In this document: positions 7,810-17,108 of the stretch, piece after piece
How positions within the stretch are numbered: the stretch's first letter is position 1
Layout: every line of letters starts with the position of its first letter
Assembly: GCF_013167455.1 (NCBI RefSeq)
Contig: NZ_CP038328.1
Direction: 5' to 3' (one strand)
From: Escherichia coli O157:H7
GTDB taxonomy: Bacteria > Pseudomonadota > Gammaproteobacteria > Enterobacterales > Enterobacteriaceae
DNA length: 64,000 nt
The notes under the pieces: generated by a model
What the model was told of the DNA's origin: nothing
Seen by the model: only the letters and a program-made list of their open reading frames with translations
Databases searched by the model: none
Program-made: the position numbers and the translations under genes

Positions 7810-8880
7810 TTATTTAATCCGGGCCATCGCGTTTCTCAGTGCCAAATCTGCCTCTTCCGTTATATCCAGGCTTTTCTGCAATACCGCCTCTGACCGGGTC
7901 AGTGCCTGACGTGCTGCCAGCGGTTTCCGGATATGCTCCATCGCCAGCATCGTGTCTTCATAGCCCTGCTGACGCCAGGCGTCGGTATGTGCCGATGTAA
8001 AACTGAGCAGACCGCCGCTGTTGCCACCATCACCTGCATATTTCAGCCTTTTCCGGGGACGGATCTCAAGGATTGTGGTGTCCGGAAAAGCCTGGCGATC
8101 CCATAAAGAACCGTCACTCAGATGCGTCACAATCACCATATTGCATCCGGCATCGACCAGAGGCGTCACAGGGGTATTTCCCTGCATATTTCGCCATCCT
8201 CCCATACCACCATCACCGAACATTGTCCCCTGAACCTCACGGGGACGGAACAGCAGGGGCAGCGCGGCTGACGCAAGCAGAGCCTCTTTCTGCTGTCCGC
8301 GGGGCAGGCTCTGGATATGCTGAAAAACGGCGTTTTTCGTGGTTCCGACACCCAGTTCAGCACGAATGCAGTCAATAATATCCTGCATGCCCCCTTCTGT
8401 GGGGTACAGCGACACATACAGCGGTAGCCCGTCTGCCAGAGCATCAGTATCAAGATAATGATCCATCAGCGCTGTCAGGGGCTCATCTGACAACAACGGC
8501 TGAGCCATCAGATTGTCAAACCCGTTGATTGTCGATATATGGCGAAGAAGCGTCGTAAGCAGTGCTCCTGCACGTCCGGGGATCTGGCAGAGGTTCATTG
8601 CCTGGAACAATTTTTTCAGCAATGAAAAGTAAACCAATCTGTTTACCGACAGCACCTGATTATTCCCCAGATGCTCCCAGAGCGCCTCCAGGCGTACGGC
8701 AGCTTCTGACAGATCGGGAGAGGCCGCGATAATGGCACCATTGAATGCGCCAATGCTGGTCCCTGAAACCATGCTGATCTGTGTACCACACTCTGCCAGT
8801 GCCTTAACCACTCCCGCCTGATAAGCGCCCACCGCCCCGCCACCGGACAGCACCAGCCCCGTTTTCATTTCTGTACTCAT
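7810..8880 (-). CDS. Patatin-like phospholipase
   Basis: 356 aa; GGGAVG oxyanion-type motif near N-terminus, GTSIG (GxSxG) nucleophile, later DGG; 4-nt overlap with upstream gene. Confidence 0.8.
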   Translation of the reverse strand: MSTEMKTGLVLSGGGAVGAYQAGVVKALAECGTQISMVSGTSIGAFNGAIIAASPDLSEAAVRLEALWEHLGNNQVLSVNRLVYFSLLKKLFQAMNLCQIPGRAGALLTTLLRHISTINGFDNLMAQPLLSDEPLTALMDHYLDTDALADGLPLYVSLYPTEGGMQDIIDCIRAELGVGTTKNAVFQHIQSLPRGQQKEALLASAALPLLFRPREVQGTMFGDGGMGGWRNMQGNTPVTPLVDAGCNMVIVTHLSDGSLWDRQAFPDTTILEIRPRKRLKYAGDGGNSGGLLSFTSAHTDAWRQQGYEDTMLAMEHIRKPLAARQALTRSEAVLQKSLDITEEADLALRNAMARIK

Positions 8881-9782
8881 GCAGCCCCCTTCTGAAATAT
8901 TTCATCGACCATACTTTCAGAGAGGCGTTCTGCAGAGCAGAGGCGAGGCATGCGAACCGGTAAGTGTTCTGCAGCCTGCGTGGTTGACCAGATCACCGGA
9001 TGCTGCTCTTCACTGCACCAGTCTCCCAGCCAGTTAATCGCGTCATGCCACTCGTTATCTGCCTGCTCCCGGCCCTGACCACCAAGCCAGTCCAGAGTGT
9101 TCAGACGCACGGTTGCACTACCGCCACTCTCCTGTGCCATCTGCGTTAATGCTTTATGTCTGAGAATATCCAGTAGCTGGTTAACCTGGCCTGTTTCGCC
9201 CTGACGTATCACATCACCAAACGCGCCCCAGCGAAGCTCTTCAAGTGCCACATAACAACGTCCGGCAGGGGAAAATGACGCATATCGCCCGGCGCTCCAC
9301 CATGAGAATATCTGCTCAAGATGTAACTGCGCCCGCTGAACCTGGTCAACACGGTGGAGTTTTTCTTCAAGATGATTCAGTTTATGGTGAACCTGATCGG
9401 CCAGGGTGAGTAACTGCTCCCGCGTATCTGCGGAATAATGCGCCAGCCTGGCTGTATCACTGACCAGTGAACTGACCCTGTCGTTTACCCGGGTAATCGC
9501 GTAGTTTGTGGTGGCAAGTGACGTTGTCATCTCCGTCAGCCAGCGCAGGGACGCCTCAACGCCCTGTGCAAGCGACGCATTGATGGCATTCTGCCGTGCA
9601 GCGCCTTCGCCGGTCAGCCCCTCTTTTAAACGCCGGAAGAACGTGCGCTCTCCGGCCGTGCGGATATGCTCCTGTGCAACATCGATTCCGTTTGCGAAAT
9701 CAACCACAAATTTTTCAGGAAGACAGGTGAGTACCTGACATACCCGGTTATCAGCAATTTGTTGAATAAATGGTGAAGTCAC
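8877..9782 (-). CDS. YjcZ-like protein (partner of the dynamin-like GTPase)
   Basis: 301 aa; resembles remembered YjcZ; translationally coupled (overlapping start/stop) to the flanking genes. Confidence 0.6.
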   Translation of the reverse strand: MTSPFIQQIADNRVCQVLTCLPEKFVVDFANGIDVAQEHIRTAGERTFFRRLKEGLTGEGAARQNAINASLAQGVEASLRWLTEMTTSLATTNYAITRVNDRVSSLVSDTARLAHYSADTREQLLTLADQVHHKLNHLEEKLHRVDQVQRAQLHLEQIFSWWSAGRYASFSPAGRCYVALEELRWGAFGDVIRQGETGQVNQLLDILRHKALTQMAQESGGSATVRLNTLDWLGGQGREQADNEWHDAINWLGDWCSEEQHPVIWSTTQAAEHLPVRMPRLCSAERLSESMVDEIFQKGAA

Positions 9783-12166
9783 AGCATTGTCTCCAGCTCT
9801 TCCCTCAGCGCCTTACTGTCAGTAATGAGCTCAGGAACCCTTTCATTTAATGCCTGAAGTCGCCCGGTAAGCCGTTCCTGCGCCTGCTGATCGCGTTTAT
9901 GATCTTCAGAGCTCTGAATCAGCGTGTTACGCAGTTGTTCAACTTTCTCCCTGAATGCGCAGAAAAAGGCATCGATTTCCTGGCGGACGGGCTGGTTAAT
10001 ATCCTGCTCAATGGATGCCTGCAGCTCCCCGAAATATGCCCGGGTCAGTGACATAACTTCCTCTCTGGCCTTGTTGATATTGATCACGCTGCGACTCACA
10101 TCCTCGTCATAGTTTTCCCAGCCCAGGTCACTGGTGCCAAACCATCGACAAACGGTTCCCCATACGCCACTCTGCCGACGGCGACGGGTGACGGTCTCCG
10201 TTCTTTCCTCCATAAGCGCACTCAGATTTATTTTTACCGCGAGCCGGGTCTGTAACTGGCTGACTGCCGGAAAACTGATTTTTACGGTAAAGCCCTCATC
10301 CTCCAGGCGGGCATTGATGCGACCGGCAATGTTTTCTGTGGCGTACAGGGCCGTGCCACGAAAACCTGTTTCAATCCCGCTGACGATTTTCTCCAGCTCA
10401 GGCCGGAACTGTGCTTCAGCCTCACGGTGCAGGCTGGTCACGGTCGATTCGATTTGCGTCATCAGTTCAAGGGCTGCCCTGCGATCACTGAATTTTATTT
10501 CGGGGCTGTCCGGATCAAAGTCCCGCATCCTGTCATGCTGATTTCCGGTTCCGAAAATATCGTGAAAGAAAGCGAATGCGTTTCTCTCCCGGGGCTGCGC
10601 TGAATTTTCTTCCTCCAGCATTTGCTGTTCTTTGCGTTTACCGCTTCTGAAATAGTCGTTCAGCTCCTCCTCCAGTGAGGCACAGACCTTCGTCAGTAAT
10701 TCCCCGGTTTTGGTATTGATGTCCTCCATGGCCATTCTGACATCACCGGTCACCTGATTCTGACATTCCTCAATCTCCTGGATATCCGCCAGCAGGCTGG
10801 TAATATGCGCCTGTAGTGACTGAATGCTTTGCTGCAGCCCCTGATGACGTAATGACAGATATTCGCTGACATTTTCTGCATTCTGCATCAGTTTTGCGGC
10901 GGCAGAGTCAACCGCCAGTGCCGCCGCTCTGGAATGGGAGCTCTGTATGACTTCCGTTATCAGTTGATCGATCAGAGATATATTCCAGAGTTTTTCTGCC
11001 TTTTTATTTACCTTAGTGCTGTCTTTCCAGTCGTCCTCTTCCACCATAGGTCCGAAAGCTTCCCTGATAAAATCATCGACCCAGGCTTCATCAACCGGAA
11101 GCGCACCGTTTTTTCGTAACTCATGAAGCGCACGGTTAGCCAGGTACGCCTGACGTGATGAGCCGGGATAAACGCGGGAGGCGGGCAGCACATCGCTGTT
11201 CAGCATTGCTGGCACCTTCTGGCGTACGGCATCCGCACCATCACCATTGCGATCTTTTTCATCGAATTTATTGACCAGCACAAACAGACGACCGGCTGAG
11301 ACGTCAGCAATGGCATTAAGCTCTTTACGAACCTCCTCATCGGCTTTCGAGTTCATCTGGGTGTAATCCATCACCGCCAGCACCGCAGAGGCTTTCTGTA
11401 GTTGATCCCGCATCATCATTTCCATCTGTGGTTGTCCGGCTTCATTAGGGCCGGGGGTATCCAGCAGTGTGAGTGTTCCCTGACATGCATCCATTCCCAC
11501 CAGGTGGCTGAACGCCACGTCGATCACCGGTAGTTTCTGCACTTCTGCGTATTCGTCAAAAGGAAATTCAGTCCCCATTGCCGCAGCAAGACGAACCAGG
11601 TCATTTAACGATGCCAGTCCGGTAAAGATTTCGTCTTCCCCGTGGTATTCATTTTTAAGCCAGACATCATCCGCCAGAATATCCAGTAGTTCGCGGGTAT
11701 CCCCGGTTTGCTGCAGGGACTGTGCGACTTGCTGCCCTGCCGGGGTGGCGAGTTTTTCCTGCAGTGTGATTAATAAATTGCGGACGGGCTGAATATGTTC
11801 CAGATGGAGGACCGGTTCCGTTTTTCCGGGAACGTGGCGGATCAATGTCGGTACCGAGGTCATGGGGCGGTTACGGTTGGGCAGAATTTCCTGCCCCACA
11901 ATGGCGTTGATGGTGGTTGATTTGCCCGCCTTCATCGTGCCGACCACAGCCAGCACCATCTCCCTGCGGGCGGTTTTGATTTGTTCGCCCTCCAGCTCCT
12001 CAATTCTTTTCAGCGCTTTCCGTTTATCAAAAAGCAGCCCGTTTTCGTTCTTACTGTCAGATAACACATCCGGCTCATCAACCATTTGCCGGAGCAGATT
12101 GATATTCAGTTGCAAAAGCCGGTCGGCTTCATCACAAAGCAGGGCGATGTTCTTTTCGTGCATCAT
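9779..12166 (-). CDS. Dynamin-family large GTPase (CrfC/YjdA-like)
   Basis: 795 aa; G1 GTMKAGKST, G3 DTPGPNE, G4 NKFD; extensive coiled-coil C-terminal region. Confidence 0.8.
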   Translation of the reverse strand: MMHEKNIALLCDEADRLLQLNINLLRQMVDEPDVLSDSKNENGLLFDKRKALKRIEELEGEQIKTARREMVLAVVGTMKAGKSTTINAIVGQEILPNRNRPMTSVPTLIRHVPGKTEPVLHLEHIQPVRNLLITLQEKLATPAGQQVAQSLQQTGDTRELLDILADDVWLKNEYHGEDEIFTGLASLNDLVRLAAAMGTEFPFDEYAEVQKLPVIDVAFSHLVGMDACQGTLTLLDTPGPNEAGQPQMEMMMRDQLQKASAVLAVMDYTQMNSKADEEVRKELNAIADVSAGRLFVLVNKFDEKDRNGDGADAVRQKVPAMLNSDVLPASRVYPGSSRQAYLANRALHELRKNGALPVDEAWVDDFIREAFGPMVEEDDWKDSTKVNKKAEKLWNISLIDQLITEVIQSSHSRAAALAVDSAAAKLMQNAENVSEYLSLRHQGLQQSIQSLQAHITSLLADIQEIEECQNQVTGDVRMAMEDINTKTGELLTKVCASLEEELNDYFRSGKRKEQQMLEEENSAQPRERNAFAFFHDIFGTGNQHDRMRDFDPDSPEIKFSDRRAALELMTQIESTVTSLHREAEAQFRPELEKIVSGIETGFRGTALYATENIAGRINARLEDEGFTVKISFPAVSQLQTRLAVKINLSALMEERTETVTRRRRQSGVWGTVCRWFGTSDLGWENYDEDVSRSVININKAREEVMSLTRAYFGELQASIEQDINQPVRQEIDAFFCAFREKVEQLRNTLIQSSEDHKRDQQAQERLTGRLQALNERVPELITDSKALREELETML

Positions 12167-12273
12167 TCACCTTTATAAATTCAATAATTCAGAACTGCGG
12201 TGAACAGCAATGAGCGTCCTTTCCCATTACTGCATGAATTTTCCTGAAATCGTATTTCCGGGATACCGTATAA

Positions 12274-15123
12274 TCAGAAAGTCATATTCAGCGTAGCCTG
12301 ACCGTTATAGCCTTCAGCGCTGCTGCCGCTGACGCTGTGGGCATAACCGGCCTGAACGCCCAGGGTGATATTTTCCCGGATACGGGCTTCCAGTCCGGCC
12401 TGCAGGTCCAGTGACGTGCCATTCCGGGACGGTGAGAACGTCATGTTACTGCCGGCTGCGGCTGTCCCCATGCTCATGTCACCCCGGGAGCTGAAGGTGC
12501 GGATAACAGAAGGCTGTACCCACCAGTTCACCGGCAGTTCACTCACACTGTGTTTTGCACTGTCGCGCAGGGTGTCACGGGATGAGGTGCCTTCACCAAA
12601 GGTCATATCGTTGTGGCTGCCCAGACGGAAACCGGCACGCACATGTTGTGCACTGCCATGCCCGAACTTCACATAACCGGCGTTATCCTGGCCGTCATCC
12701 AGGGAGAGTCCCTGCCAGGTGTACTGCAGTTGTGGCTCCAGCATCAGATTGTCAGTGATACTGAAGGGCAGACCGGTTTCCAGTGAGCCCAGCCAGCCCC
12801 AGCCCCGGGCGCGGAAGTCGTTATTGTCCGATGACGCTTTCATGCTGTGACGGGTTCCCTGGGCCACAATGTCAGCCCACAGGCCGGAGGATGTGTGTAC
12901 CAGATTCAGGTATCCGCCCAGACTGCCGGCATCATCCCGGACCGTGCCGGCGCGGGAACCGTCATCATCCTTAACATCAACGGAAGAATGGCCTGCAGCA
13001 CCATACACCCCTGTCGTCAGAGACATACCGGCAACCTCTGTTCTGAGCAGGTCACCCTCCAGACGGACGAAGCCATAGCTGCCGCTGCTTTCCGGCGTGG
13101 CTCCACGGGCAATACCGCCGTTGTTATCGTGACCGAGATGACCGCCCTGAATGCTGAGACGGACGCTGTTATTTTCACCGTTTACACCGGTCTGATGGCT
13201 GCGGGAGCCTGCCAGAATCCGGTCATAGTCCATTGCCTGTGTCAACATGGATGTATACAGGGGGACTTCAGCACGATAAGCATTTTCACTGCGCAGGTAC
13301 CAGTCTTCATCGCTGTCACGGTTCAGGGTGTAGTTAAAGGCGCCGGCCTGAAGCGGGCGACTCAGGGCAAACGCACCTTCTTCTGTGGTGGCGCCATTCT
13401 GTGCATCCACAACCCGGATACCCTGTCCGGTGGTTGCCACCCCGAGGTTGCTGTTTCCGACATTTGTAAACGCAAGCCAGGTTTTGCCGGTTGCCTGACC
13501 ACCATTAATCACCAGCTGGTCAGAGGCATTGCTGCCATCAAGGCGAACACGCATATTGATGGTGCCGCCCTGGCCGGTGAGGTTCGTGGTGGTCAGTTTA
13601 TGGAACGTTACCGGGGAGTTACTTTTTGCAACAGCACGGCTCAGCGCGGCATTCGGTGTCGTCTGATTATCAAAGCGAATCTCCCCTGCGTTAACAATAT
13701 CGCCGGTACTGACCACATCACCATTCAGTACCATACTGGCGCCTTTACTGAGCTGTGTTCTGCCACTCAGACTTCCCCCGGCAGCCAGCGTCAGTGTTCC
13801 ACGATGTCCGACAGTGGTGTTGCCAGCCTGTCCCCCGGCATTAACCGTAAAGCTGCCGCCATTTTCCAGCAGCAGGCCGCTGGCCTGACCGGATGTGCCA
13901 TCAATACTGAACTTACCGCTGGCATTGGTCCCCTCAACAGTGGCACCACTGTCTGCAATCAGGGCACCACCGGATGTTATGGTGACACTTGTCGCCTTAC
14001 CGCCGGCAGACACTGCCAGGGTACCGCCGTCATCCACTAGGGTATTCTGTGCTGAATGGCTCTCCAGTACATCCAGACGACCGCCGGATTCCAGAACAAC
14101 ACCGTCAGCCTTACCGTTTTCCACCGTGAAATTCCCCAGACGGTTTGTGCCGATGACAGTTGCAGCAGTACTGGTAACCAGTGCACCGCCCGTGTTCTGG
14201 GTGACTGCAGTGGCTTCCCCGCCGGCATGTACCCTCAGTTCACCGTTCTGATTTATGGTGGTGTTACCGGCAGCGCCACCTGCCTTAACAACCTGCCAGC
14301 CCCCCTCGTTAATTACCGTGTTCAGCGCAAGTCCGTCCCTGTGCACATATTGGTAACCGCCATTCAGTGTGGTATTCAGGGCCCTTCCGTGTACCGACTG
14401 GTCACCACCTGCGTAAATGAGAGTGTCACGGGCTAGCCCGGAAAATAAGATAATCTGCCGTCCATTTTTGTTGATGGTGGTGGATTCTGCTGTTCCCTGG
14501 ACCTTCTGACCCGTATACGAGTTGTCAGAATCAGGGCCGCCTTCTGCGCCGGTGTTGATGATGGTTCCTGTTGCCAGCCCGCCACTTTTAACGCTCTGGT
14601 AACCGTCGCGGTTGATAATTGTACCGGTGGCAACCCCGCCCTCATGCACCCACTGCTCGCCTCTGTTATTCAGTGTGGTGTTCACCGCCAGTCCGTTCAG
14701 GCTCTGTCCCCCGCCGTCACGAATAACCGTATCACTGGCTGTTCCCCCCTCCAGCACGACCTGACGACCATTTGTGGTGACAGTGGTGTTTCCGGCTATC
14801 CCGCCATTCTGTATCCATTGCCCACCGGTGTTTTCTTCACTGTCCGGCCCCAGTTCCAGCCCGGTACTGATGGTCATTCCGTTGGCCGTACCGAAGACAA
14901 TCTGGTTGTCATGATTTGTCAGTGTTCCATCGTTCACGGTTTCTCCCGCCTGTACAACCTTGTCAGCAGCCAGTGCCGGGACTGATGTGACAGCAGCAAG
15001 AGACAGCGCAACCGCCACACCGGCGCGTTTTCCCCGTGAGCGGGCCAGTTCGGAGGCCACCACCAGGGTGCCCGTAATGTGATTCCATACCAGCCTGTAG
15101 CTGGTGTTCAGATGTCGTTTCAT
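12274..15123 (-). CDS. flu: Antigen 43-family self-associating autotransporter (Cah-like)
   Basis: ORF track 12274..15291; start at MKRHLNTSYRLVWNHITG (ATG 15121-15123); 949 aa; passenger repeats and C-terminal beta-domain ending ...ATLNMTF. Confidence 0.9.
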   Translation of the reverse strand: MKRHLNTSYRLVWNHITGTLVVASELARSRGKRAGVAVALSLAAVTSVPALAADKVVQAGETVNDGTLTNHDNQIVFGTANGMTISTGLELGPDSEENTGGQWIQNGGIAGNTTVTTNGRQVVLEGGTASDTVIRDGGGQSLNGLAVNTTLNNRGEQWVHEGGVATGTIINRDGYQSVKSGGLATGTIINTGAEGGPDSDNSYTGQKVQGTAESTTINKNGRQIILFSGLARDTLIYAGGDQSVHGRALNTTLNGGYQYVHRDGLALNTVINEGGWQVVKAGGAAGNTTINQNGELRVHAGGEATAVTQNTGGALVTSTAATVIGTNRLGNFTVENGKADGVVLESGGRLDVLESHSAQNTLVDDGGTLAVSAGGKATSVTITSGGALIADSGATVEGTNASGKFSIDGTSGQASGLLLENGGSFTVNAGGQAGNTTVGHRGTLTLAAGGSLSGRTQLSKGASMVLNGDVVSTGDIVNAGEIRFDNQTTPNAALSRAVAKSNSPVTFHKLTTTNLTGQGGTINMRVRLDGSNASDQLVINGGQATGKTWLAFTNVGNSNLGVATTGQGIRVVDAQNGATTEEGAFALSRPLQAGAFNYTLNRDSDEDWYLRSENAYRAEVPLYTSMLTQAMDYDRILAGSRSHQTGVNGENNSVRLSIQGGHLGHDNNGGIARGATPESSGSYGFVRLEGDLLRTEVAGMSLTTGVYGAAGHSSVDVKDDDGSRAGTVRDDAGSLGGYLNLVHTSSGLWADIVAQGTRHSMKASSDNNDFRARGWGWLGSLETGLPFSITDNLMLEPQLQYTWQGLSLDDGQDNAGYVKFGHGSAQHVRAGFRLGSHNDMTFGEGTSSRDTLRDSAKHSVSELPVNWWVQPSVIRTFSSRGDMSMGTAAAGSNMTFSPSRNGTSLDLQAGLEARIRENITLGVQAGYAHSVSGSSAEGYNGQATLNMTF

Positions 15124-15348
15124 CAGCTTTTCCTTACAGAGGGTGAATAAAAAAGCCGGTACCCACAAAAGTGGATACCGGCAGGTACAAAACAGAGTTA
15201 TCGGGCACAGCGATACGTCCCGGGCGTAAACGCTCTCCCCCTTCATCAGACAGAGAAGTATCAGTCTGTTGTGTGCAATTCCGTTCTGCATGATGAAGAG
15301 ATTCAGCTGCCTTTTCGCAGGCCATTAACCACTATAAACGATCGATAT

Positions 15349-15384
15349 AAACGATCGATACCTGTTTTATCGATCGTTTTATTC
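15349..15384. promoter_or_regulatory. Three closely spaced GATC sites upstream of the Ag43 gene (Dam/OxyR phase-variation switch)
   Basis: GATC at 15349-15352, 15362-15365, 15381-15384 within ACGATCGATATAAACGATCGATACCTGTTTTATCGATCG, about 230 bp upstream of the start. Confidence 0.65.
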
Positions 15385-15494
15385 TATTAACAGTAGAGCA
15401 GTCACGCAAGAGAAACAGGAGGGGCATGAGGTGTTTGTATCATGTTTTCAGTTGGTTAACGCAATGTAATCAGACATTTCCCCTGGCAGACTGT

Positions 15495-16367
15495 TCAGAA
15501 GAAAATCCAGTTCCATACCGCGCGGGCAACAGAGACCACCGTGTCACGGACGGCACGCAGAACTGTGCGTGCAACAGAGGCAACACAGACGCTCTCCACC
15601 GTGTCAAATATCCGGTCCACCGCACCGGTAAACTGTTCACGGGCCTGCCCCCAGACAGATTCCGTGCACAGCTCGTCCTGCAGGCGGGTCATCAGGGGAC
15701 TGGCGGCATGGTCGGGAAGCGCTGTCATGAGCGCACTGACCAGCGTATCCAGTTCCCAGCCGGTGCGGGCCGATACGGCAACAACCGGATGTACGGGCCG
15801 GAACAGCCGGAATACCGCATCTGTTTTTTCGCGAATGTTCTGTTCCTGTGCGGGAGAAGGCTGAATACCTGCCATATCCCATTCATGGCAGGGCTCTGTT
15901 TTGTCGGCCTGCGTCACCACAAACAGCACCTGCTGATGTCCCCGGTGCAGTATGTGTCGCCAGAAATACTCATCCACAGACAGGGCACGGTCATCGGCTT
16001 TAATCAGCCACAGTACCAAGTCCAGTTCAGGCAGAATGTCACGGTACAGGGCTTCATACTCTGCATCCCTGTCCCGGCTCTCGCCCACCCCGGGCAGGTC
16101 AGTGATAACCATGCTGTGACCATGGCCACTCAGACGGAAGCGCCGCACTTCCCGGGTGCCGGCGTGAACATCACTGACCGGGGTGACCTCCCCCTGAAAC
16201 AGTGCATTACAGAGTGAGGATTTACCGGCCCCGCTTTTACCCATAATGCCAATCACGGGTTCGTGACTGGTGAGTTTGCGCAGATGTTCCAGGATGTGAC
16301 GGGAAAGCGAGTAAGGCAGGGAGGAGAGCGGTTTTTCAATTGCCTCAATGGCATCAGACGGATTCAT
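15495..16367 (-). CDS. YeeP/YkfA/YfjP-family GTPase (50S ribosome-binding GTPase family)
   Basis: ORF track 15495..16406; likely start MNPSDAIEAIEK (ATG at 16365-16367); P-loop GKSGAGKSS, DLPG motif. Confidence 0.75.
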   Translation of the reverse strand: MNPSDAIEAIEKPLSSLPYSLSRHILEHLRKLTSHEPVIGIMGKSGAGKSSLCNALFQGEVTPVSDVHAGTREVRRFRLSGHGHSMVITDLPGVGESRDRDAEYEALYRDILPELDLVLWLIKADDRALSVDEYFWRHILHRGHQQVLFVVTQADKTEPCHEWDMAGIQPSPAQEQNIREKTDAVFRLFRPVHPVVAVSARTGWELDTLVSALMTALPDHAASPLMTRLQDELCTESVWGQAREQFTGAVDRIFDTVESVCVASVARTVLRAVRDTVVSVARAVWNWIFF

Positions 16368-16695
16368 ACATGTATTCCCGGTGAAAAAAGACAAAACCCC
16401 GCGCACCGGAAAGGTGGCGGGGGATTCACAACGATAATATCTGTCTGAAATTATTTAGGATGCAGGTATCTTCTGATAATCATACATCCCGAATTTTGTT
16501 CTTAATAGTTGAGTAGTGGTATTTGGTTTCCCTGAGAGAATATAAAGGTGAATCATGCTGCATTGAGTTTGATTCAATTTGTACTGAGACAAGTATCTTC
16601 ATGATTATAATCAAAAGTTGGGTGGATTGGTCTGGCGCTCATCATTTTTTCGAATAAACTCACTAATTATTGCCCCCCCCAAAGGAGATGATTTC

Positions 16696-16878
16696 ATGTA
16701 TAATTGTGGTGAATCATATTCAGAATACGACATATCATTATCTGACGATGAAAACTATGACGATGACTATTATCGTGAACGCCCGTGTCCGGGAGAAGTT
16801 TTCGGCTATGATAATACTGAGGATAATGATGAGGCGGCATCTGATTATGCATTAAAAATAAATGAAAACTCTGATTAA
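16696..16878 (+). CDS. Small highly acidic hypothetical protein (60 aa)
   Basis: ATG 16696 preceded by AAGGAG at 16682-16687; MYNCGESYSEYDISLSDDENYDDDYYRERPCPGEVFGYDNTEDNDEAASDYALKINENSD. Confidence 0.35.
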   Translation: MYNCGESYSEYDISLSDDENYDDDYYRERPCPGEVFGYDNTEDNDEAASDYALKINENSD

Positions 16879-17108
16879 TACGGGGATAGCTGATAATAAG
16901 ACAATCAATGACAGATATTAATGAATAAACATAATCAGGCGCTCAATACTTGGTTTAATCTGGGCGCCTGATTAAAATCTGAGGAAACATATAATAATTT
17001 TCATCAAAATAGTATTTATGTACTAACTAAGCTGGATTTGAACCTCTATTTCTGGGTATTTGTTATCACTTAATCCATTACTGCTCCTCCTTCAGCATAT
17101 GTCGTATC

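Follow-up and report, generated by a model that had tools for sequence, protein, structure and literature searches.

ECs_1394, a conserved acidic mini-gene at an island edge of Escherichia coli O157:H7, and its most likely neutral poly-C leader run

Contingency loci, such as the Neisseria opc and porA promoters, genes of Haemophilus and Campylobacter and the poly-C tract of Bordetella fim, carry a C/G run of 7-10 nt near the start of a gene, which slips by single units among related strains. Their tract lies inside the open reading frame (ORF) or between the -35 and -10 boxes, and each step switches expression. DNA mimics, among them T7 Ocr, ArdA, T4 Arn, phi29 p56 and AcrF2/AcrIIA4, are small and strongly negative proteins that are built on folded scaffolds. 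Surveys of O157:H7 by RNA-seq and Ribo-seq have described orphan small genes that are short, lineage-restricted, weakly expressed and AT-rich (PMC4765031; PMC5597208). Finally, the gene of the Ag43 adhesin (flu/cah) is subject to a Dam/OxyR phase switch.

The small gene ECs_1394 has traits in common with these systems. Like the contingency loci, it carries near its start a C run of 7-10 nt, a hypermutable repeat that differs by single units among related isolates. However, this tract is situated in the transcribed leader 5' of the Shine-Dalgarno (SD) sequence, and thus neither inside the ORF nor between a -35 and a -10 box, and no effect of its length is predicted; its variability does not exceed that of a control tract, and most alleles lack it. 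Like the DNA mimics, the product is small and strongly negative, and the mobile element on which it is encoded also carries a KlcA-type antirestriction gene and restriction-modification (R-M) cargo. In contrast to the mimics, it is predicted to be disordered, is not phage-borne and shows no sequence or structure similarity to them. Like the O157:H7 orphans, ECs_1394 is short, lineage-restricted, weakly expressed and AT-rich; it differs from them in having been annotated before, in its wide distribution in E. coli and in a clear signal of purifying selection. The Ag43 switch is present in the same island, two genes away; it works epigenetically, by GATC/OxyR in the flu leader (about 15291-15495), and has no connection with the poly-C run. 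We consider it likely that ECs_1394 is a real, E. coli-restricted gene at the edge of an island and that the poly-C run in its leader is recent, slippery and neutral.

The window, i.e. the whole stretch of 64,000 nt that was analysed and to which all positions refer, matched the SpLE1 / OI-43/48 island of E. coli O157:H7 at 100% identity. It contains the following features in and around the gene.

16696-16878, + strand: 60-aa acidic ORF, hypothetical protein, ECs_1394 (Sakai) / EDL933_RS05535 / WP_000282125
16682-16692, + strand: extended SD sequence AAGGAGAUGAU, with AAGGAG at 16682-16687, 8 nt before the ATG at 16696, as read from the sequence
16673-16680, + strand: C8 homopolymer in the 5' untranslated region, +8 to +15 from the transcription start site (TSS), length-polymorphic from C7 to C10
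16743-16772, + strand: imperfect 15-nt tandem duplication in the ORF (ENYDD/DDYY), which expands or contracts in other strains
15495-16367, - strand: ECs_1395, which encodes a YeeP/YfjP-like GTPase; neighbour of ECs_1394 in divergent orientation and first of the conserved backbone genes

The initial annotation had described a 60-aa ORF of which about one third of the residues are D or E, preceded by a strong AAGGAG site and an uninterrupted C8 tract, in AT-rich DNA next to a YeeP-family GTPase gene and Ag43. Direct reading of the sequence confirmed this description. The peptide contains 11 D and 8 E (19/60; 31.7%), 8 Y and 3 K/R, has a net charge of about -16.5 and a pI of about 4, and the stop codon ends at 16878. 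No other ATG-started ORF of 50 aa or more in the window comes close to this acidity, the runner-up having 18.7% acidic residues. The GC content around the gene is 0.33-0.39 compared with 0.49 over the whole window. In AAGGAGAUGAU the UGAU that follows AAGGAG extends the pairing, so that 10 of 11 positions match the anti-SD complement, and this SD sequence is unchanged in all 59 pattern-matched copies. In Sakai, ECs_1394 is located between the divergent ECs_1395, which is followed by the Ag43/Cah adhesin gene, and a truncated IS66-family element. Because of the imperfect tandem duplication inside the ORF, the ENYDD segment has expanded or contracted in some strains: one or two extra units are present in the variants P0022 and P0008, and one unit is lost in P0020.

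ECs_1394 is a genuine conserved gene under purifying selection. For this analysis 59 copies were pooled from a metagenome pattern scan, complete genomes and contigs that encode the two common protein variants. They comprised 12 haplotypes, and the frame was intact in 57 copies. In the annotated frame 12 of the 20 distinct polymorphisms were synonymous and eight nonsynonymous, against a mean of 5.07 synonymous changes when the identical base changes were re-placed at random within the ORF (P = 0.0006). In the remaining frames 3-5 of the 20 changes were synonymous, with the exception of the antisense frame that shares the wobble positions. The pairwise dN/dS (Nei-Gojobori) was 0.16 in the annotated frame and 0.34-1.6 in the five others. 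Apart from this frame-specific purifying selection, the gene possesses the ribosome-binding site and the TSS that are expected of a coding gene. The conservation that had been proposed as a check on the ORF is thus evident.

Two alternative open frames overlap ECs_1394, one on the + strand from the ATG at 16688 (16688-16855; 55 aa) and one on the - strand (16852 to 16694; 52 aa), and both are open in most strains. They were rejected as genes, since 3-4 of the 20 changes are synonymous in them; because this substitution pattern is non-coding, they are regarded as by-products of composition. Initiation at the upstream in-frame TTG at 16618, which would give an 86-aa ORF that encloses the C8 run, was likewise rejected, as this codon is upstream of the TSS and has no SD sequence. 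In a minority of copies one-base frameshift alleles were observed, which recur around 16780-16800 at the CGCCCGTGTCCGGGAGAA segment and yield 52-aa products (P0017, P0018 with 19 members, and P0024-P0027). Such alleles suggest that the gene is now and then pseudogenised or that short C/G runs were misread in sequencing.

Transcription start sites were taken from the Cappable-seq study of EDL933 (PMC10469882, Table S5), the coordinates of which are those of NZ_CP008957.1; the position in the window equals 1145553 minus the record coordinate. Gene 5535 has a gTSS at 1128887(-) that was found in one of eight conditions, stationary-phase LB only, and gene 5540, the GTPase gene, has one at 1128956(+) that was found in six of eight. 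In the window these correspond to the first two positions below.

16666, + strand: TSS of ECs_1394 (Cappable-seq, PMC10469882), 7 nt upstream of C8 and 30 nt upstream of the ATG; EDL933 carries the island twice, which makes read mapping for this TSS ambiguous
16597, - strand: TSS of the divergent YeeP-like GTPase gene (Cappable-seq, PMC10469882)
16605-16610, - strand: perfect TATAAT -10 box, 8 nt upstream of the GTPase TSS and part of the near-palindromic ATTATAAT (16604-16611)

The start sites of ECs_1394 and the GTPase gene are therefore arranged back to back, 69 nt apart. A candidate + strand promoter CTGAGA-16-TATAAT (16584-16611; TATAAT at 16606-16611) was discarded, as there is no matching + strand TSS and the same box serves the GTPase TSS at 16597. 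No promoter-like site spanning C8 was detected on either strand in a promoter scan, and a hand search of both strands yielded no acceptable pair of -35 and -10 hexamers with C8 as the spacer. Because transcription starts at 16666, the run is part of the transcribed leader and not of a promoter spacer. This leader is 30 nt long, AUUAUUG-C8-AAAGGAGAUGAUUUC-AUG, and the run ends 15 nt before the ATG. Since it is upstream of the SD sequence, it cannot alter the SD-AUG spacing or the reading frame. On the opposite strand the run (G8) is found at -76 to -83 from the GTPase start. The initial annotation had suggested a slipped-strand switch that would change promoter spacing or leader structure. With the run at +8 to +15 the former does not hold, and the latter received no support from structure prediction: when the mRNA was folded from the TSS with C6 to C11, the mean predicted accessibility of the SD sequence was 0.54-0.55 throughout and the ensemble energy shifted by about 0.6 kcal/mol at most. 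In the predicted fold the C run forms the loop of a weak 5' hairpin. Nevertheless, a C-rich stretch directly 5' of the SD sequence could affect the binding of 30S or S1 in a manner that is beyond the reach of folding models. A riboswitch or other structured leader was also considered and rejected, as models of a 108-111-nt leader were no better than shuffles (z +0.3 to +2.3); a search of Rfam with the leader gave sub-threshold noise only.

In strand-specific RNA-seq of EDL933 under 11 conditions, Z1213 and Z1653, which on the basis of gene order correspond to ECs_1394 in the two island copies, had RPKM values of 0-2. Translation of ECs_1394 had no entry in the Ribo-seq and proteomics supplements that were searched (PMC4765031; PMC5597208). 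Expression of the gene appears to be low and its promoter weak.

The length of the run at 16673-16680 was determined with exact-length synthetic queries against 5,426 complete E. coli genomes, and individual cases were confirmed by reading the sequence. The records were distributed as follows.

C7: 45 records
C8: 381 records
C9: 35 records
C10: 3 records

Sakai and EDL933 have C8. C9 is common to TW14359, EC4115, RM6067W and other O157 strains at near-identical coordinates, and because it is shared by this lineage group the C9 allele appears to have been inherited. One C9 allele was also seen in a metagenome assembly. In Rafaela_II one island copy has C7 and the other C8, and near-isogenic assemblies differ as well (C8 in RM9872, C7 in RM9873-C1). 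These differences could reflect switching that is faster than assumed, or assembly errors. The window has one further long C/G run, which served as a control.

40826-40834: C9 run, intergenic, downstream of a TerD-family gene and its terminator-like hairpin

This control tract was more polymorphic (C8 in 186, C9 in 226 and C10 in 87 records). Because it varies more, the variation from C7 to C10 in the ECs_1394 leader is at the level of an unselected run in the island, and an excess over a comparable non-functional repeat, as would be expected of a contingency locus, was not found. A comparison of tract length among related genomes had been proposed as a check on the switch: the tract is indeed not invariant, but its variation does not rise above that of the control.

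The leader segment that includes the run differs among the 59 loci.

TAACCATCCC: 36 of 59 loci
TAACAATCCC: 6 of 59 loci
TAACCACCCC: 3 of 59 loci
TACCCCCCCC: 3 of 59 loci
Pure C (C7-C9): 11 of 59 loci

The flanks diverge from the window in a nested fashion: those of C7-C9 are essentially identical to it, each flank of TAC8 differs at 0-4 sites and each flank of TAACCATCCC at 2-8. From this order it follows that the pure C run is a recent derivative. An ancestral, interrupted TAACCATCCC was converted stepwise, within one haplotype, to TAACCACCCC, then to TAC8 and finally to C8. The pure run is confined to this haplotype, which ter/SpLE1-type islands of O157, O55, O145, O26, O103 and O111 STEC carry. 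In a first-order Markov model 1.5 C/G runs of at least 8 nt are expected in the window and two are present, so that a C8 run is in itself no surprise. Within 10 nt there were at least four C-ward events, compared with only some 6-16 differing sites over the 320 nt of flanks. Extension of the run by transient misalignment would account for this local excess; instead of such a mutation bias, the run may have been favoured by selection.

In one sub-lineage of YeeP-Ag43 (CP4-44-like) islands, ECs_1394 closes the backbone and adjoins a cargo/defence slot. This follows from the end of the homology between islands near 17035, about 157 nt past the stop codon, and from the K-12 elements CP4-57, CP4-6 and CP4-44, in which neither a homolog of ECs_1394 nor a comparable small acidic ORF upstream of yfjP or ykfA was found. 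In 16 of 16 distinct places, which cover two protein variants, the gene is flanked on one side by the same backbone, from which it diverges. This backbone is composed of the GTPase, Ag43, DUF932, Antirestrict-family (KlcA-like), RadC, DUF987, CbeA, CbtA and DUF5983 genes. The far side of ECs_1394, beyond about 17035 of the window (loci L044-L059, at 8340-16183), is variable: it holds a type I R-M system and an AAA_13 protein in some strains, an MmeI-like enzyme with a helicase and a T5orf172 protein in others, and in still others the ter operon, or eptA with a PAP2-family gene. At the equivalent relative position K-12 CP4-57 carries abpAB and rnlAB. Within the backbone block one further element is conserved downstream of the gene.

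16932-16974, no strand assigned: conserved hairpin with 14-nt arms (93% complementary) and a 15-nt loop, 55 nt after the ORF stop

A T-rich tail accompanies this hairpin on the - strand only, and it may terminate transcription that enters from the cargo side. The region is also a repeated target of insertion sequences, as IS1 or IS3-family elements were seen, in different strains, either in the intergenic DNA that separates the ORF from the GTPase gene or just past the ORF (loci L005, L007 and L046).

ECs_1394 is an E. coli-restricted accessory gene with a 7-kDa, polyanionic and Tyr-rich product. A search of 5.8 billion proteins returned 29 clusters, mostly full-length or frameshifted copies, and every named one was from E. 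coli. An exhaustive HMMER scan of 1.84 billion representatives gave fragments of the ORF, most of which had already been found, and two low-complexity matches in giant proteins. Six plasmid-labelled records carry the gene at 98-100% identity, one of them from Salmonella. No match was present in Pfam, NCBIfam, PADLOC or PDB, PHROG gave a single match with E = 0.31, a search for phage homologs found none, and the locus tags of ECs_1394 retrieved nothing relevant from the full-text literature. The AF2 model, computed from a shallow alignment of nine near-identical sequences, had a pLDDT of 52.9, a pTM of 0.12 and no secondary structure, and in the charge-hydropathy plot the protein falls on the disordered side (H 0.34 versus a boundary at 0.51). 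It is probably disordered.

Could the frame nevertheless be a non-functional one, i.e. a chance ORF in AT-rich, repeat-like intergenic DNA that is conserved for the GTPase promoter or for an RNA? This is very improbable. It would be in line with the three overlapping open frames, the very low RNA levels, the recurrence of frameshifted alleles in some lineages (P0018, 19 members), the failure to find translation in the supplements that were searched, and the fact that the non-coding DNA upstream (16520-16695) is conserved about as well as the ORF itself. What it does not explain is a synonymous excess that is specific to the annotated frame (12/20 against 3-5, the wobble-sharing antisense frame excepted), the dN/dS of 0.16, an optimally spaced SD sequence with a TSS 30 nt upstream of the start codon, and the intactness of 57 of 59 copies over diverged haplotypes. 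As to the run, it is hardly credible that the tract is in truth invariant and that its length differences stem from homopolymer errors in long-read assemblies. Many of the genomes are indeed PacBio or Nanopore assemblies and some supposedly near-identical strains differ, but C9 is present in the older finished genomes of TW14359 and EC4115 and in their relatives, with C8 in Sakai and EDL933, it reappears in a metagenome assembly, and the alleles group by lineage. The run might act as a contingency switch or a rheostat that tunes translation of the acidic protein or, as G8 at -76 to -83, the divergent GTPase/Ag43 promoter. The run abuts the SD sequence, its length spans C7 to C10 in closely related STEC and differs even between two copies of one genome, and several C-ward changes within 10 nt were needed to create it. 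A switch is quite improbable all the same: given the TSS at 16666, neither the ORF nor any promoter spacer contains the run, the predicted accessibility of the SD sequence and the AUG is constant, more variation is seen in an intergenic C9 of the same island that presumably has no function, the alleles follow lineages (C9 in the group of TW14359, EC4115 and RM6067W), and the majority of the gene copies have no run at all and carry TAACCATCCC. As the tests of position and of excess variability both fail, a switch is not supported.

For the protein, a role as a DNA-mimic anti-restriction or anti-defence factor can be envisaged, which would titrate restriction enzymes or H-NS when the island enters a new host. 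This is a guess from charge and neighbourhood alone, and we regard it as unlikely. With 32% D/E and a net charge of -16 the protein has the high negative charge of such factors, and the known mimics Ocr, ArdA, Arn and p56 are likewise acidic; the gene is under purifying selection, the element also carries a KlcA/ArdB-type antirestriction gene, and the adjoining slot often holds R-M systems. However, strong acidity is common among disordered proteins of many functions, and the protein has no confident fold that could display a DNA-like array of charges. It resembles no Pfam, NCBIfam, PHROG, PADLOC or PDB entry and has no phage homologs, and its weak transcription, seen in stationary phase only, is unlike that of an early-entry gene. 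As a working guess, the protein may be a polyanionic decoy for a nucleic-acid-binding partner. An elaboration of this, in which the island-encoded decoy neutralises a nucleic-acid-binding protein of the host or the cargo (a restriction enzyme or H-NS) at the backbone/cargo junction and the poly-C leader of STEC is a newly evolved rheostat of its dose, is given very little credence. Because the gene is located beside R-M cargo and a KlcA-type gene is present in the element, the DNA-mimic reading is still the most useful hypothesis for testing.

In the preferred reading, that of a real island-edge gene with a neutral run, ECs_1394 would be transcribed divergently from the GTPase gene, from a weak promoter in stationary phase, with a 30-nt leader and a very strong SD sequence. 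The pure run would undergo single-base slippage as often as is expected of C/G runs of its length and give rise to heritable C7, C9 and C10 alleles. These changes in length would leave the promoter geometry, the SD-AUG spacing, the frame and the predicted ribosome access unaltered. The tract polymorphism is thus most likely neutral.

The finding is largely ordinary, as an uncharacterised orphan small gene of an island and a neutral homopolymer polymorphism both belong to known classes. It does carry a caution, since a strain-variable homopolymer near the start of a gene is not in itself a phase switch; the position of the TSS and a matched control tract decide. Both poly-C runs are potentially useful as lineage markers in STEC typing. 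ECs_1394 itself could reasonably be included, at low cost, in screens for anti-defence or silencing-related functions. It is a widespread and selectively maintained mini-protein gene of E. coli only, which marks a fixed boundary between the conserved backbone of the island and its exchangeable defence and resistance cargo.
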